Origin: a virus
Length of the DNA: 64,000 nucleotides
IMG/VR virus record: IMGVR_UViG_3300027319_000002
Location: 12,403-76,402 of that record
Direction: 5' to 3' (one strand)
Shown: in pieces, positions 3,135 to 33,605 of the stretch
Layout: each line of letters begins with the position of its first letter
How positions within the stretch are numbered: the stretch's first letter is position 1
Notes under the pieces: generated by a model
The model's input: the letters and a program-made list of their open reading frames with translations, nothing else
Told to the model about the DNA's origin: nothing
The model's database searches: none
Program-made: the position numbers and the translations under genes

Positions 3135-3385
3135 TGGGATTCTTCCGGCGGCGTGATGATGGGCGGGAAAGTATCCGGCTCAAGGCGGCCAAGCGGCTTG
3201 ACCGGCTGCCCGCGGGCGAGGTGATGAACTTCGTCGACGCCTCCATGGCCGGGGCGTGGAAGGCCATGGAGGATTACGCTAAGAAGCCGGATTCGTTCCT
3301 TCTCGACGAGGCGGAACGCGGGCTGCAGCAGGCGCTCGGTGCCATCGACAGCCTGCGGAACCGGTTGACTTCCTCCCCCGTCTAA
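3134..3385 (+). CDS. hypothetical helical protein; last codons supplied by IS mini-element
   Basis: GTG at 3134 after GGAGGA RBS; C-terminal LTSSPV* lies inside the 3365-3412 element. Confidence 0.65.
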   Translation: MGFFRRRDDGRESIRLKAAKRLDRLPAGEVMNFVDASMAGAWKAMEDYAKKPDSFLLDEAERGLQQALGAIDSLRNRLTSSPV

Positions 3386-3412
3386 AGGCGGGGGTCTCCT
3401 CTGAGGGATCCG
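3365..3412 (-). mobile_element. IS200/IS605 single-hairpin mini-element (PATE-like)
   Basis: Begins TTGACTTCCTCCCC (same as right end of the 32678 element) and continues TAAAGGCGGGGGTCTCCTC (same as its left end); flanked by ATAA (TTAT on element strand). Confidence 0.75.
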
Positions 3413-3457: not shown

Positions 3458-3985
3458 TCAGGAGATCTTGACGGGCACCCAGGGCTGGCAGCCGCGAGTC
3501 TCGAACGCCTTATCCGTGCGGAGGATTTGGATCGTTGTGGGACCCTCGGCAATGCCGTTGTTGTTGATGGAGTTCAGCCCGCCACTCAGGTCTTTCAACC
3601 GTGCCCAGTAGCAGATTCCATCCTCATCAGGCCCCTTCGTCTTGTAGTAGCCGGGTTTGATCTCGACACCGACAACATAGGTGCCGGGGCCAATCTCGGT
3701 AACCTGTTCCGAATCAGCGGTCTTAGCCTCACTTTTCGGCTTCTCGCTCTGCGGAGCCTTCGGAGGGTCGGCGGTAAACGTTATCGTGGTGCGCTGCTGC
3801 TGCTCGGACGCTTCGTTAAGAGCATCACCAGCAGCGAAGAAAAGTCCGCCAGCCGTGCATGAGGCCACGTTGCTGATTATGAACGCTCCGATGATGGCGA
3901 GCTTCTTCCCAAGCCCCTTCTTGGGCTTCTCAGACCTGTGGCTTGGCGAAGGGTACCCCATTGGGGGCGACGCATGGTGCGCCAC
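3458..3985 (-). CDS. membrane-anchored/secreted actinobacterial-type surface protein
   Basis: AGGAGG RBS before GTG 3985; basic patch plus hydrophobic helix with Cys; C-terminal GTYVVGVEIKPGYY...CYWARL...FETRGCQPW domain seen in actinobacterial surface proteins. Confidence 0.7.
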   Translation of the reverse strand: MAHHASPPMGYPSPSHRSEKPKKGLGKKLAIIGAFIISNVASCTAGGLFFAAGDALNEASEQQQRTTITFTADPPKAPQSEKPKSEAKTADSEQVTEIGPGTYVVGVEIKPGYYKTKGPDEDGICYWARLKDLSGGLNSINNNGIAEGPTTIQILRTDKAFETRGCQPWVPVKIS

Positions 3986-4064
3986 ATCTGCCTCCTCTAC
4001 CCTTTGCTGGAACCAGCATAGCTCGTTCCAACAGTTGAAGAGAACTAGTTGTCCCAAACGTTAT

Positions 4065-4118
4065 TGACCGGTAGTTTGGCGGCGCAAGCCCCGGCCTTCA
4101 GGCCGGGGAGCACGTCAA
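4065..4118 (+). mobile_element. IS200/IS605 single-hairpin mini-element
   Basis: TTAT (4061-4064), then AAGCCCCGGCC-TTCA-GGCCGGGGAGCAC-GTCAA; same hairpin loop and GTCAA end as the TnpB element right end. Confidence 0.65.
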
Positions 4119-4513: not shown

Positions 4514-5153
4514 GGGGTACGAGAAGGCGCTGGCCATCCGGCTTGAGCAGCTTGCACAGAAGCTGGAGAAGCTCGGCGTTACCGGCCACACGACCATTCC
4601 GGCCGGACGGTCCCCCGGCCCACTGGAGGATCAGCCAGAAAGGAATCGGGCCGTGAAGCTGGAAGACGTTCTGACGGAAATCGGTATCAAGTACAAGGAG
4701 GTCATCACGCGCAATCTGCGCGTGGAGAACCCGCTTCTCTGGATCATGTTCCGCGCCGCGGACGAGCTGTGGGTCCTTAAGGGCGTTGCCGCCGAGTACA
4801 CCACCGTCTGGCACGACCACGACGTTCTGAGCCCGGGAGACCCTACGTTCACCGTGACTGCCGAGTCATCGGACGGCCGCAAGGTGCAGACCTTCCAGCC
4901 GCACGAGCTCCCTGGCGACGTCAGGGCGCACATCAAGGACTGGCTGTGGGAGACCCGGCCTGTGAGGCTCGGGGACGCGCTGCGCGCGCCGATCAAGGAT
5001 AAGCTCGAGGCCGAGCGGGAAAAGGTTGCGCAGCTGGAGCGGGAGCGTGAGCGTCTCGTGACCACGATCGCGAGGCTGCGCGGCATGATCCACGCGCTTG
5101 AGGCGGAGAACGACAGCCTTAAGAGGCAGCTTCCCGCGGCCGAGGTTGCCTGA
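4500..5153 (+). CDS. hypothetical protein with C-terminal coiled coil
   Basis: Long coding-like ORF; start inferred from promoter position. Confidence 0.7.
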   Translation: MTSAEGYEKALAIRLEQLAQKLEKLGVTGHTTIPAGRSPGPLEDQPERNRAVKLEDVLTEIGIKYKEVITRNLRVENPLLWIMFRAADELWVLKGVAAEYTTVWHDHDVLSPGDPTFTVTAESSDGRKVQTFQPHELPGDVRAHIKDWLWETRPVRLGDALRAPIKDKLEAEREKVAQLERERERLVTTIARLRGMIHALEAENDSLKRQLPAAEVA

Positions 5154-21498: not shown

Positions 21499-21660
21499 TC
21501 AGGGGTGCCCTAGGTGGTCGAACAGGCCGCGCTTGACCCCCTTGACGAATGTTGCCCAATTCTCGGGGGTTGTCTCGATGCGCCTAGACGGCTGATCCCA
21601 ATCGATGATGATCTTGCCGTTGTCTGTCGTCTTCGGCTTGTATACGCCCGCCTTGATCAT
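21499..21660 (-). CDS. DUF397-like small protein
   Basis: ETTPENWATFVKGVKRG matches the DUF397 C-terminal W..F..GVK.G pattern. Confidence 0.55.
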   Translation of the reverse strand: MIKAGVYKPKTTDNGKIIIDWDQPSRRIETTPENWATFVKGVKRGLFDHLGHP

Positions 21661-21669
21661 CTCTAGGTA

Positions 21670-21723
21670 GGCGCGCCACTGGCGGTGGTGAAGCGGTACG
21701 TCGAGCAGCAGAAGGGACGCTGA
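21670..21723 (+). pseudogene. tnpA: C-terminal remnant of Y1 transposase
   Basis: GAPLAVVKRYVEQQKGR* is the IS200 TnpA C-terminal helix carrying the catalytic Tyr; an in-frame TAG lies just upstream. Confidence 0.8.
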
Positions 21724-22917
21724 ATGCTGACCGGACGCCGCTACCTGCTGGCCTTCACCCCCGAGCAGGAGGAGTTCGCCGAGAAGATCGGTGACGCCTG
21801 CCGGGTTGTGTGGAACACCGCGCTGGAGCAGCGCCGACAGTATCGGCGGCGCGGCGCGTTCATCGGTTACGTAGAGCAGGCGCGGCAGATGGCCGAGGCC
21901 AAGAAGGACTTCCCGTGGCTGGCCGAGGCCCCGTCGCACACGCTTCAGCAAACGCTCCGCGACCTTGAGCGGGCATGCAAGACGCACGGCACGTTCAAGG
22001 TCCGCTGGCGCTCCAAGCGGAAAAACGCGCCGACGTTCCGCTTCCCCGATCCCAAGCAGATCACCGTGGAGCGAATCTCCCGTCGCTGGGGCCGGGTCAA
22101 GCTGCCCAAGCTGGGCTGGACCCGCTTCCGGTGGACACGCCCGCTCGGCGGGCAACTTCGCAATGCCACCGTGCTCAAGGATGGTGGGCGCTGGTACATC
22201 TCCTTCTGCGTCGAAGACGGGCTGATGGAGTCCGCACCGAATGGCAAACCCCCGGTGGGGGTGGATCGTGGTGTCACTGTCGCAGTCGCCACCTCGTCCG
22301 GGTGGATGCGTGACCGCGAGTTCGTCACCCCAGGGGAGGCGGTACGGCTCAAGCGTCTTCAGCAGCAGCTCGCCCGGCAACGGAAGGGCTCCAACCGGCG
22401 CGCGGCTACCCGGGCGAAGCTGACCAAGCTGAACGCCCGCATCCGCGCCCGGCGTACCGACTTCCTGGCGTGGACCGCCAACCGCCTCACCCGTGACCAC
22501 GGACTGGTTGTTGTGGAGGACCTCAACATCCGAAACATGACCGCCTCTGCCAAAGGCACGCTTGCCGAGCCGGGGAGGAACGTCGCCGCCAAGGCTGGGC
22601 TGAACCGGGCGATCCTGGCCAAAGGATGGGGCGGACTACTGACCGCCTTGGAGCACAAGGCTCGTTACAACGGTTCCCGTATTCTGCGGGTGCCACCTGC
22701 GTTTACATCGCAGACCTGCCATGCCTGCGGGCACTGCGCGCCGGACAACCGTGAGAGCCAAGCGGAGTTCCGGTGCCGCGCCTGCGGCCACCAGGACAAT
22801 GCCGACGTGAACGCCGCGAAGAACATCCTCGCCGCCGGGCTGGCGGTGACAGGGCGTGGAGACCTCGCCGTTGGGCGGTCTGTGAAGCGCCAACCACCCA
22901 AGGTAGAGGCAGCGTGA
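21724..22917 (+). CDS. tnpB: RNA-guided nuclease TnpB
   Basis: N-terminal HTH (FTPEQEE...CRVVWN), RuvC GVDRG / VVEDL / NADVNAA all intact, CxxC-CxxC zinc finger. Confidence 0.95.
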   Translation: MLTGRRYLLAFTPEQEEFAEKIGDACRVVWNTALEQRRQYRRRGAFIGYVEQARQMAEAKKDFPWLAEAPSHTLQQTLRDLERACKTHGTFKVRWRSKRKNAPTFRFPDPKQITVERISRRWGRVKLPKLGWTRFRWTRPLGGQLRNATVLKDGGRWYISFCVEDGLMESAPNGKPPVGVDRGVTVAVATSSGWMRDREFVTPGEAVRLKRLQQQLARQRKGSNRRAATRAKLTKLNARIRARRTDFLAWTANRLTRDHGLVVVEDLNIRNMTASAKGTLAEPGRNVAAKAGLNRAILAKGWGGLLTALEHKARYNGSRILRVPPAFTSQTCHACGHCAPDNRESQAEFRCRACGHQDNADVNAAKNILAAGLAVTGRGDLAVGRSVKRQPPKVEAA

Positions 22918-22985
22918 ACGCGCCTCAGCCACGGGAATCCCCCGCCTTCAGGCGTGGGGAGGAAGTCAACAAGGTAAATACCGCA
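22825..22985 (+). ncRNA. TnpB omegaRNA/reRNA (approximate), guide starting about 22970
   Basis: Established architecture: scaffold overlaps the tnpB 3' end and right end, and the guide comes from flanking DNA. Confidence 0.6.
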
Positions 22986-31273: not shown

Positions 31274-31537
31274 ATGACCAGCAGATATGAGGGATTCGAC
31301 ACCGAAACCCGGGTCTGGCGCGGGCGCATGATCCGCGGGCTGCAGCTCCGCCCACCGCGGACGTGGGCGTTCGCATACGCCGACGTGACCGTCACCGACG
31401 ATGACCGGTGGGACCTGCTTGCCGACAAATACCTCGGCGACCCCTACCGGTGGTGGGAGATGGCCGATGCCAACCCCGAAATCTTCTGGTGGGGAGATCT
31501 AGAGCCAGGAACCCGGATCCGGATGCCCTATGTCTAA
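31274..31537 (+). CDS. LysM-like baseplate protein (P2 gpX-like)
   Basis: DRWDLLADKYLGDP..WW..ADANP...LEPGTRIRMP. Confidence 0.85.
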   Translation: MTSRYEGFDTETRVWRGRMIRGLQLRPPRTWAFAYADVTVTDDDRWDLLADKYLGDPYRWWEMADANPEIFWWGDLEPGTRIRMPYV

Positions 31538-32681
31538 GACGAGGCTTGTCTACGAGCTGTACATCAACGAAACGAAGGTCAACCCCCAGCCGTTCGATGT
31601 GGTGATCGAGCCGGGGATCGGCAAGATCAGTGTGGTCACGGCCAAGCTGTTCTTCTCCGGGCCTGACCAGATCCGCCGCCGGATGGAGTACCCGAAGCAC
31701 GGCACCCCGGTCCGCCTGGTGTGGGGGCGCCGCCCGAAGATCCGCACCTGGTACGGGTACATCCACCACACCCAGCCCACCACCGGTGAGCCGCAGGCCC
31801 TGTATGGGGGCCTGGTCGCCACCTACGTCATGGTCGGCACCGGGCAAGGGCTGATTATGGAGCGGACGAGGGATTGGCGGCAGATCACCGATTCTGGTAT
31901 CGCCAAGCAGATCGCCCAGGAGTATGGGCTTTCCTTCGTCGGCCACCGCACCAGGAAGGTGCACGATTACCTCTACCAGCCGGGCATCTCCGACTTCTCC
32001 TGGCTGAAGCAGCGGGCTGAGAAGTCCTCCCGCGTGCTCCACATCGAAAACGGAACCTTATACTTCGTCGATCCCGCCTCGCTGGCGATGGCCACCCGGT
32101 CCAATCCACTGACCGTCCGGATGGACCGGGTCAAGGAGCACGATGACTGGGTGCTGGACGTGCGCCCGCTGCACGGGTCGCTGGTGCCGATTTCCGGCAA
32201 GCAGGCAAACCGGCAGCTCACTGGCATTGACTACGCCAGTAACCAGCTGCTGAAAGCCAAATCCCCGGCGAGCGAGCCCGCCCCGGAGTGGGTCGCCAGA
32301 AACCGTGAGATCGCCTCGGTCACCGACCTGTACATTGACGCCGAGGCGCTGGCGATTGCCAACGAGCAGTGGCTGAAGGCCGATGTGGACATGATCGGCG
32401 AGCCGGATGCGATCCCCGGGAACCTGCTCGACCTTCAAGGGGAAGCGGTCAAACCGGAGCTGACCGGAGTGTGGATGGTCACCGAAGCCCGGCACCACCT
32501 GCACTTGAAGGATCCCAGCGCAGTCGGTGCCGCGGCCACCTACTACGCCACCGCGACCGTCTCCCGTAACAGCTCCGACGCGCTGATCTTGCGGGACAGG
32601 AGCCTGCCGCGGGTGGATGATGCCTGCACCCTGATGGGCGGCCGGTGGGTGGCCGCCAATCGGAGGGACGTGCTGCTTTGA
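31530..32681 (+). CDS. baseplate hub protein (gpD/VgrG-like); stop codon lies in the inserted element
   Basis: DSGIAKQIAQEYGL, Q.GISDFSWL..RA, GVWMVTEARH. Confidence 0.8.
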   Translation: MSKTRLVYELYINETKVNPQPFDVVIEPGIGKISVVTAKLFFSGPDQIRRRMEYPKHGTPVRLVWGRRPKIRTWYGYIHHTQPTTGEPQALYGGLVATYVMVGTGQGLIMERTRDWRQITDSGIAKQIAQEYGLSFVGHRTRKVHDYLYQPGISDFSWLKQRAEKSSRVLHIENGTLYFVDPASLAMATRSNPLTVRMDRVKEHDDWVLDVRPLHGSLVPISGKQANRQLTGIDYASNQLLKAKSPASEPAPEWVARNREIASVTDLYIDAEALAIANEQWLKADVDMIGEPDAIPGNLLDLQGEAVKPELTGVWMVTEARHHLHLKDPSAVGAAATYYATATVSRNSSDALILRDRSLPRVDDACTLMGGRWVAANRRDVLL

Positions 32682-32857
32682 CTTCCTCCCCTCCCTGAAG
32701 GGAGGGGATTCCAACCCTCACGGGTTGGGTTTCCTGCTTCACAGGCGACTGCCGTCGCACACCCGAAGGTGTGCGACCGGCCTTACGTGGCCTCCACAGG
32801 CATCACATCCCGCCAGCCCGGCGGTAGGCCCGCCAGGCGATAACAAGCCTGGCGGGC
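32660..32857 (-). ncRNA. orphan omegaRNA-like guide RNA (approximate)
   Basis: Extended -10 TGcTATCTT at 32872-32864; several perfect hairpins; shares CCGCCGGGCTGGCGG and CTGTGAAGC with the tnpB 3' end. Confidence 0.6.
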
Positions 32858-32933
32858 GATATAAAGATAGCACAGCTTCGAAGGGATCCGATTCCTCCCC
32901 CGCCTAAAGGCGGGGGTCTCCTCGGAGGTACCG
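32678..32933 (-). mobile_element. 256-bp non-autonomous IS200/IS605 element (left end, promoter, omegaRNA-like scaffold, right end)
   Basis: Ends GAAGTCAA like the tnpB element; retains tnpB 3' sequence; removal restores CTG CTA TGA with an ATGA stop/start overlap. Confidence 0.88.
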
Positions 32934-33605
32934 ATGAGAGAACACAACGGGCTCTACCGCGGGATCGTCGTTTCCAACGCCGACCCTGAAGGCAAGATGA
33001 GGATCACCGCCCAGGTGCCGGACGTGCTGGGGGAGACGGTCTCCAATTGGGCGCTCCCGGCCACCATCATCGACGGCCCGCCCGAGCCGGGGGAGGCGGT
33101 GTGGATCCAATACCCGAATGGGGATTTCCGCTACCCGGTCTACCACCGCTTCCACGACCCGAAAAAGGGCCGCATCATCCCCGGGAATTCCCAGCTGGCC
33201 GTCGACGGACCCGGCGCTGCGGGGATCGTGTTGGATTCCAACGTCCACGCCCGCAAATCCAGCGGCGGGTATGTGGAGGTGCACGCCGCCGATTTCATCA
33301 AGGTCTCCTCCCAGCGGCTGAAGACCGACATCCGCAACCTGGATTTCGACCCGGTGCAGGCCGTCCAGAACGCCCCCGCTTACCGGTGGCGGCGCCTGGT
33401 CGACGGCCGGGAAGGCATCGGGCCATTGCGTGAAGACCTACCCGCGGTCACCCACGTCGGCGCATCGCACGTCTCCGAGGGAAGCCTGGTCGGAATTCTC
33501 TGGGAAGCGGTAAGACAGCTTTCCAAAAGGGTTGCGGATCTGGAGCATGAACTCTCCATTCTAAAGAATGACGCGGCTCCAAATACACTGGAAAACGACG
33601 TGTGA
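32934..33605 (+). CDS. baseplate spike (gp5 OB-fold) with peptidase-S74-like chaperone tail
   Basis: GLYRGIVVSNADPEGKMRI..QVP..G....WA; SSQRLKTDIR. Confidence 0.85.
   Translation: MREHNGLYRGIVVSNADPEGKMRITAQVPDVLGETVSNWALPATIIDGPPEPGEAVWIQYPNGDFRYPVYHRFHDPKKGRIIPGNSQLAVDGPGAAGIVLDSNVHARKSSGGYVEVHAADFIKVSSQRLKTDIRNLDFDPVQAVQNAPAYRWRRLVDGREGIGPLREDLPAVTHVGASHVSEGSLVGILWEAVRQLSKRVADLEHELSILKNDAAPNTLENDV

Follow-up and report, generated by a model that had tools for sequence, protein, structure and literature searches.

A protein-less IS200/IS605-type mini element with a predicted omegaRNA, silently inserted between two virion genes of an actinomycete phage

Introduction

Palindrome-associated transposable elements (PATEs) were first named in haloarchaea (PMC3119063) and have also been described in Geobacillus stearothermophilus, where they often encode guide RNAs (omegaRNAs) that are to be used in trans by the TnpB of other elements (Meers et al. 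2023, PMC10055086). The same study reports that the target motifs of TnpB are clade-specific. Here we describe a 256-bp element, referred to below as the mini element, which occupies the minus strand of positions 32678–32933 in a 64,000-bp stretch of viral DNA (the window). The window comprises bases 12403–76402 of the 92,984-bp IMG/VR virus record IMGVR_UViG_3300027319_000002, which is estimated to be 95% complete and represents a high-G+C tailed phage, described as an actinomycete phage. The mini element lies between a gene for a 383-amino acid (aa) baseplate protein and a gpV-like spike gene (Table 1). It resembles PATEs in that its ends are homologous to those of tnpB-bearing elements while a protein gene is lacking, in that it retains a predicted omegaRNA that needs the TnpB of another element, and in that it is inserted 3' of a clade-specific motif without target duplication. 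Unlike the PATEs described so far, it is found in a virion-gene operon of a phage, exactly at a stop/start overlap, it shares a promoter-like box with apparently immobilised cassettes in other replicons, and its likely partner nuclease is encoded outside the same genome.

The insertion sequence (IS) ISDra2 of Deinococcus radiodurans reportedly has TTGAT as its target motif. Its TnpB, for which structures of the complex with omegaRNA are available (PDB 8exa, 8bf8 and 8h1j), aligns over the full length with a TnpB encoded in the window at 21724 (E 5e-33 against 8exa), and the RuvC D/E/D and zinc-finger motifs are present in the phage protein. This phage TnpB belongs to a family of elements, here termed family W, that like ISDra2 inserts after TTGAT or CTGAT and has an omegaRNA that overlaps the 3' end of tnpB and stops at the right end of the element; unlike ISDra2, the phage copy has lost tnpA and the left end. 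The mini element differs from ISDra2 in belonging to another family (family M), in its target motif TCAT and in being devoid of tnpB. Its ends are more akin to what is reportedly the architecture of IS608 from Helicobacter pylori, with a right end of TCAA 10 nt past the foot of the hairpin, GAAT just 5' of this hairpin and a left-end cleavage site 17–22 nt 5' of the left hairpin. However, the motif of the mini element is TCAT and not TTAC, as is said of IS608, and its hairpins are G+C-rich.

Phages also carry homing endonuclease genes, either free-standing or intron-borne, and 'transposon non-restorative homing' has been listed beside these (review PMC13565253, Table 1). Cleavage by TnpB followed by recombinational copying is established in bacteria, and a similar process has been proposed to operate between co-infecting phages. 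The outcome proposed below for the mini element would be similar to endonuclease homing, as an element-free sister genome would be cut and repaired from an element-bearing genome. Unlike in endonuclease homing, the phage would contribute only the guide and no nuclease, and no empty alleles were seen.

A non-autonomous member of an actinomycete IS200/IS605 family

A 35-nt pattern shared with the right end of the mini element was found in 35 loci (20 viral and 15 bacterial contigs), and terminates tnpB-only elements of ~1.38 kb in the genomes of Thermomonospora, Microbispora, Sphaerimonospora and Thermoactinospora; these elements make up family M. The left end is 87–93% identical over 55–64 nt to that of full-length copies (L031, L036, L028, L039 and L040), and the right end is 89–95% identical to that of full-length host copies. 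In blastn, more than 12 full-length IS copies are matched by these ends at E-values of 1e-16 to 1e-29, well beyond chance similarity. The DNA directly preceding the left end of family-M elements reads TCAT or TTCAT in 12 of 14 copies and TCAC in the remaining two, with TCA invariant in all 14. TCAT is also found directly before the left end of the mini element, where a preliminary description of this DNA had placed it in front of the guide in the reconstructed empty site, and is the genuine target-adjacent motif of its family. Because both the ends and the TCAT flank match family-M elements, the mini element is classified by sequence as a non-autonomous IS200/IS605 element, i.e. a PATE or miniature inverted-repeat transposable element (MITE), of family M, which is abundant in Streptosporangiales actinomycetes. 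Both ends are homologous to those of full-length members, the insertion is flanked by the motif and lacks a target duplication, and there is no protein gene, the overlapping open reading frames (ORFs) being chance frames of at most 60 aa.

Three copies of the exact right-end terminus are present in the phage: one belongs to the tnpB element, one to the mini element and one to a 48-bp remnant that represents a collapsed family-M derivative. At the same site as this remnant, a related contig (L023:9005–9770) carries a 766-bp cargo element with family-M ends, in which a small ORF for a Pro/Gln-rich membrane protein replaces tnpB; next to this element are a fragment of tnpA and a tnpB with 98% identity. 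A fourth right-end-like terminus, at window 4089–4118 on the plus strand, consists of a hairpin followed by AGCACGTCAA and gives a weak match (20 bits) to the family-M scaffold model R1 introduced below; it lies in a divergent region upstream of the minus-strand ORF 3458–4057.

Approximately half of all family-M insertions are located precisely at the ATG or GTG of a long ORF that runs on the opposite strand and has a G+C content at third codon positions of 0.78–0.97 (L019, L031, L035, L039, L041, L086, L089, L104, L117 and window 32934). Such start-codon insertions are expected, since TCAT is the reverse complement of ATGA, and at these sites the left-end leader of family M provides a GGAGG-type ribosome-binding site.

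Exact boundaries and a silent insertion

In three relatives of the phage (L152–L154: a Nonomuraea prophage and two metagenomic relatives, 58–60% aa identity in gpV), the 381/383-aa gene and the gpV gene share a 4-nt stop/start overlap that reads GTGA, ATGA or TTGA. Removal of 32678–32933 from the window yields ...CTGCT/ATGAGAGAACAC... (the slash marks the insertion point), a sequence that is colinear with these relatives and in which the 4-nt overlap is recreated without target duplication. The boundaries of the 256-bp element are therefore exact, in agreement with the length given in the preliminary description.

Translationally, the insertion is silent. The TGA stop of the 383-aa gene (32679–32681, plus strand) is restored at the original codon position by the TCAA with which the mini element ends, with one Leu codon changed from CTA to CTT, and the left-end leader supplies a GGAGG ribosome-binding site (32924–32928, plus strand) 5 nt 5' of the gpV ATG. 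The translationally coupled ATGA overlap has thus been exchanged for a 252-nt spacer and a new GGAGG. The flank that takes the position of the guide was earlier described as directed at a baseplate junction, and indeed equals the uninterrupted junction sequence of the 383-aa gene and gpV; a second match to it with fewer than three mismatches is absent from the 93-kb genome. A 7-bp G+C hairpin (GGCGGCC-N7-GGCCGCC; window 32637–32657, minus strand) starts exactly 21 nt past the right end, that is, just beyond a 20-nt guide, and the homologous codons of L152–L154 do not form this hairpin.

The predicted omegaRNA scaffold and its promoter-like box

The minus strand of 32857–32678 folds with a minimum free energy of -113 kcal/mol (z = -7.7 versus shuffles). 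A covariance model, R1, was built from 12 tnpB-linked right ends of family M with the mini element left out. R1 matches the mini element with 108.5 bits (E 4e-24) over model positions 1–149, compared to 128–173 bits for the training copies, and the match stops at 32678, exactly at the right-end boundary, so that the adjoining flank is in the place of a guide. All seven helices of R1 and every conserved single-stranded motif are kept in the mini element. The scaffold also covaries across the family: in a count over 21 tnpB-linked and protein-less sequences, in an alignment fitted to R1, paired cells amounted to 94.3%, compared to at most 50% with the partners slid, and compensatory changes were present in 22 of 41 pairs, a value that none of 500 shuffles reached. 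Rfam gave no match in the window at gathering thresholds; the sub-threshold matches of the scaffold are sot0042 and HgcC, which we take to be RNAs of tnpB 3' ends. The left-end hairpin, the TG-n-TATCTT sequence and the ~180-nt hairpin-rich stretch listed in the preliminary description are all present on the minus strand, and its notion of a protein-less cassette with a full omegaRNA scaffold is supported, a TnpB in trans being needed by construction.

Transcription is predicted to start near 32857, in a conserved AT-rich box (32851–32873). In the mini element, the -10-like TG-n-TATCTT of this box is positioned 7 nt before the first hairpin, and in the family-M parents a -10-like TAGAAT or TAAAAT is positioned 7 nt before the tnpB ATG. 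A generic terminator scan of 32400–33200 found no terminator-like site on either strand. Searching with a 23-nt word from the box retrieved eight further, unrelated metagenome contigs, which share box, first hairpin and scaffold with the mini element at 75–83% identity over ~215 nt (window 32874–32676). In these eight contigs the left-end hairpin is deleted, two different guides are found, and no TnpB is present within the 1–11 kb examined. This suggests that the conserved unit consists of the promoter-like box together with the RNA and, as box and scaffold are kept where the left-end hairpin is lost, that selection would act on the RNA and not on mobility. In the metagenome contigs L155–L163 (JGI and ENA), the cassettes adjoin an HTH_36 Rep-like gene and iteron-like direct repeats; these contigs may be plasmid-like replicons and the cassettes guide-only genes that have become immobilised on them.

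The phage TnpB element and the choice of nuclease

The 21724 gene gives the sole Cas12f1-like TNB match in the window; tblastn searches with TnpB queries were directed at the comparator loci rather than the window. Family W is of the tnpA+tnpB type, but the phage copy is truncated at its 5' end: in nine comparators with a full tnpA upstream, homology with the window ends precisely at 21670, and only the last 18 codons of tnpA and no left end remain in the phage. The best match to the phage TnpB among them is a copy in Thermocrispum municipale, with 92% aa identity. Of 14 intact family-W copies, 12 have TTGAT, CTGAT or GTGAT as their flank and the other two have GGAT and CGAT, which makes GAT invariant in all 14 and TGAT present in 12. 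The joined flanks of the phage tnpB element read CCTTGAT/CAAGG, and a search for its empty site returned 0 matches. It had been claimed that TCAT also precedes the tnpB element. A TCAT is indeed present at 21657–21660, 9 nt ahead of what is left of tnpA, but because the left end is missing from the phage copy this is coincidental, an artefact of the 5' truncation, the motif of family W being nTGAT. The ATG of the small minus-strand ORF 21499–21660 (MIKAGVYKPK...; no Pfam match) falls within the 12 nt that separate TTGAT from the tnpA remnant; in the reconstructed empty site, this ORF would start with TTG.

The omegaRNAs of the two elements are related but belong to different families. The alignment bears out that the mini element shares the tnpB 3' motifs CCGCCGGGCTGGCGG, CTGTGAAGC and GGAATCCCC...GGGGAGGAAGTCAA with the 21724 gene, and both RNAs have the identical 3' terminus GGGGAGGAAGTCAA, while their peripheral hairpins differ in number and length. 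With a family-W scaffold model (R2, 31 sequences), the phage TnpB's own RNA reaches 166.3 bits, compared to 38.8 for the mini element, whereas R1 scores the mini element at the 108.5 bits given above and the RNA of the phage TnpB at 56.1. Covariance models of both scaffolds, as envisaged earlier, each detect the RNA of the other family (39 and 56 bits) and nevertheless separate the two families. Moreover, the phage TnpB is only ~35% identical to family-M TnpB, and the empty site of the mini element carries CTCAT, unlike the nTGAT of family W. With both the target-adjacent motif and the scaffold family differing, the mini element and the 21724 TnpB do not look like a cognate pair, and the idea of one nuclease with two guides is unlikely because the mini element belongs to another family than the phage TnpB. 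A base-pairing rule between left-end guide and target that explains TCAT versus TGAT could not be reliably derived.

The second TnpB of the phage (500 aa, IS607-type, encoded outside the window) was considered as partner and rejected, being 33% identical to family-M TnpB. The most likely partner, judged from these comparisons, would be a family-M TnpB encoded by the host. This is plausible given that the Nonomuraea genome with the closest named prophage relative (60% identity in gpV) contains at least seven scaffolds that score 91–156 bits on R1.

Distribution and empty alleles

Every contig with an identical gpV either carries the mini element or breaks inside it, and a megablast search of the junction against GenBank phages gave no match. 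A search for empty-allele phages, suggested in the preliminary description, was carried out on close relatives, IMG/VR and JGI metagenomes and found none. A Y1 TnpA is absent from the phage. Candidate copies at other places are those of L149, the collapsed derivative and the related cassettes elsewhere. In L149 (position 2244; ENA ERZ27254875 k141_36186), homology to the phage begins exactly at the right-end boundary of the mini element. The DNA upstream of this point is unrelated and has genes on the minus strand, including a TraA-like gene; a variant right-end hairpin is found in the final 60 nt of the element. L149 represents either a mosaic junction that formed at the element or a switch from one copy to another during assembly.

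Proposed mechanism and alternative explanations

The reading that we favour, with a probability of roughly 0.55, is that the mini element is a silently inserted family-M PATE/MITE whose omegaRNA is used in trans with a family-M TnpB of the host. The element would probably have come from a host chromosome. Its box would drive a minus-strand RNA of ~200 nt, the 3' 16–20 nt of which match the uninterrupted junction, and this RNA would act only with a TnpB in trans, namely a host family-M TnpB that recognises TCAT and not the phage TnpB. With AGCAGCACGTCC or AGCAGCACGTCCCTCC as the guide target after TCAT, the complex would cut element-free junctions (TCAT-AGCAGCACG...), present either in excision products or in co-infecting sister phages, and cleavage followed by recombinational copying would help the element to be retained or copied. 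Mobilisation of the mini element itself would require a Y1 TnpA of the host. The suggestion made in the preliminary description, homing against sister phages, is reasonable by analogy as far as the process is concerned, but no empty allele accompanies it and the nuclease is most likely encoded by the host.

Several observations weigh against use of the RNA with a host nuclease. The genome of Thermocrispum municipale, which holds the best match to the phage TnpB, showed no family-M ends, and the cognate nuclease may be absent from the real host. The R1 score of the mini element is below that of every tnpB-linked family-M member, with three non-canonical pairs in one helix; a generic sigma-70 promoter scan of 32400–33200 detects no promoter, a -35 being absent, and the predicted RNA would run antisense to the late operon. 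A degenerate 25-nt pattern of the empty junction had 0 matches in IMG/VR and JGI metagenomes and no empty allele was found among close relatives, for which reason ongoing homing or excision has no support, and finding the mini element 100% conserved is uninformative in contigs that are themselves 99.3–99.6% identical. The low score and broken pairs, the lack of empty alleles or signs of activity in the IMG/VR and JGI searches, and the absence of TnpA and of a cognate TnpB from the phage would also fit a neutral relic, a passenger in decay from which no functional RNA is made or used and which is kept solely because the insertion is perfectly tolerated. The 48-bp sibling points to the same decay of family M in this phage. 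We regard such a relic as possible yet on balance unlikely, since the mini element has retained all helices and conserved single-stranded motifs, and since other protein-less cassettes have kept box and scaffold despite loss of the transposition hairpin, which argues for selection on the RNA.

That the phage TnpB loads the omegaRNA of the mini element besides its own, in a split system protecting or spreading both insertions, has in its favour the shared core motifs and 3' terminus, the cross-detection between the models, the conserved catalytic and zinc-finger motifs, and the fact that this TnpB is the sole nuclease of the general kind that is guaranteed to be present during infection. It is nonetheless rated improbable because the peripheral hairpins and, decisively, the target motif given by the empty site (CTCAT) differ. 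The two motifs diverge at a position without variation in either family (GAT in all 14 family-W and TCA in all 14 family-M copies), the proteins are distant, the TCAT before tnpB stems from truncation, and target motifs are reported to be clade-specific (Meers et al. 2023, PMC10055086). Still less probable is a role independent of TnpB, either as a structure in the sense-strand mRNA that acts as stabiliser or decoupler, or as a minus-strand RNA that regulates the 383-aa gene in antisense at its 3' end. A very stable structure forms on either strand and the coupled overlap has been replaced by a spacer with its own ribosome-binding site; however, neither strand has a terminator-like site, the conserved features are those of an omegaRNA, and the relatives function without a mini element. 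Extending the favoured use of a host family-M TnpB, the promoter and omegaRNA modules could be portable guide-only genes that conscript host TnpB against element-free competitors, a nuclease-borrowing gene drive, which we consider rather unlikely. That its guide-only carriers would comprise both the phage and unrelated plasmid-like replicons lacking the transposition hairpin is a similarly speculative proposal.

Features of the locus and neighbouring observations

The features of the mini element, its flanking genes and the related elements in the window are listed in Table 1.

Table 1. Positions of the mini element, its flanks and related elements in the window
Feature	Position	Strand	Remark
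Target-adjacent motif TCAT	32934..32937	-	Reverse complement of ATGA (gpV start codon plus one base)
Left-end leader, 17 nt, from cleavage site to hairpin	32917..32933	-	Kept as ..CCTCCGAGGAGA in host copies
Left-end subterminal hairpin, perfect 8-bp; presumed TnpA recognition hairpin	32897..32916	-	Homologous to full-length elements
Conserved AT-rich box	32851..32873	-	Holds extended -10-like TG-n-TATCTT, 32872-32864
Predicted omegaRNA scaffold, ~180 nt	32678..32857	-	Core 32828-32678 fits the family covariance model end to end
Right-end terminus AGGAAGTCAA	32678..32687	-	10 nt past right-end hairpin; ends GTCAA
Guide-equivalent flank AGCAGCACGTCCCTCCGATT	32658..32677	-	Antisense to final codons of the 383-aa gene
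383-aa baseplate gene (ORF)	31530..32681	+	One flank of the mini element
gpV-like spike gene, Phage_base_V (Pfam) (ORF)	32934..33605	+	Other flank of the mini element
5'-truncated IS605-type element, family W	21670..22969	+	18-codon tnpA remnant, tnpB 21724-22917, omegaRNA and right end 22830-22969
tnpB gene	21724..22917	+	Pfam HTH_OrfB, OrfB_IS605, Cas12f1-like TNB
TTGAT, likely original target motif of the tnpB element	21653..21657	+	Overlaps TCAT 21657-21660
48-bp collapsed family-M derivative	3365..3412	-	Left-end leader, one hairpin, right-end terminus

Outside the window, the second TnpB gene (IS607-type, NCBIfam 319 bits) is followed 18 nt past its stop codon by a CRISPR-like array, at ~4,900–5,150 of G000:C1 (L005:1023–1296, minus strand). 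The array consists of five repeats of 25–29 nt with a type I-E-like palindrome, CCCCACGCGTGCGGGG, and four spacers of 32–34 nt. The spacers have no meaningful match in GenBank phages, the phage genome or the compared loci. As a route to the host, the repeat was sought in representative genomes, where no arrays with it were found, and the 383-aa protein was not found in five candidate host genomes.

Significance

The use of PATE omegaRNAs in trans has already been described (PMC10055086), and the mini element is an addition to the PATEs. Protein-less IS200/IS605 elements with a guide RNA have been noted before, and in the literature we found no demonstrated use of these RNAs. What sets the mini element apart is its location in a phage, its silent insertion at a stop/start overlap, its mismatch with the resident nucleases and its kinship with guide-only cassettes that appear immobilised. 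It also presents a clean case, with a single guide, a defined and essential target junction and a defined motif, for which the two nucleases of the phage are expected not to work with the RNA and those of the host family are expected to do so. Should the phage not borrow a host nuclease, the mini element would show how such elements persist in tightly packed virion operons, through restoration of a stop codon and supply of a ribosome-binding site. If the phage does borrow a host nuclease by means of a guide-only cassette, RNA-guided homing would extend to competition between phages.

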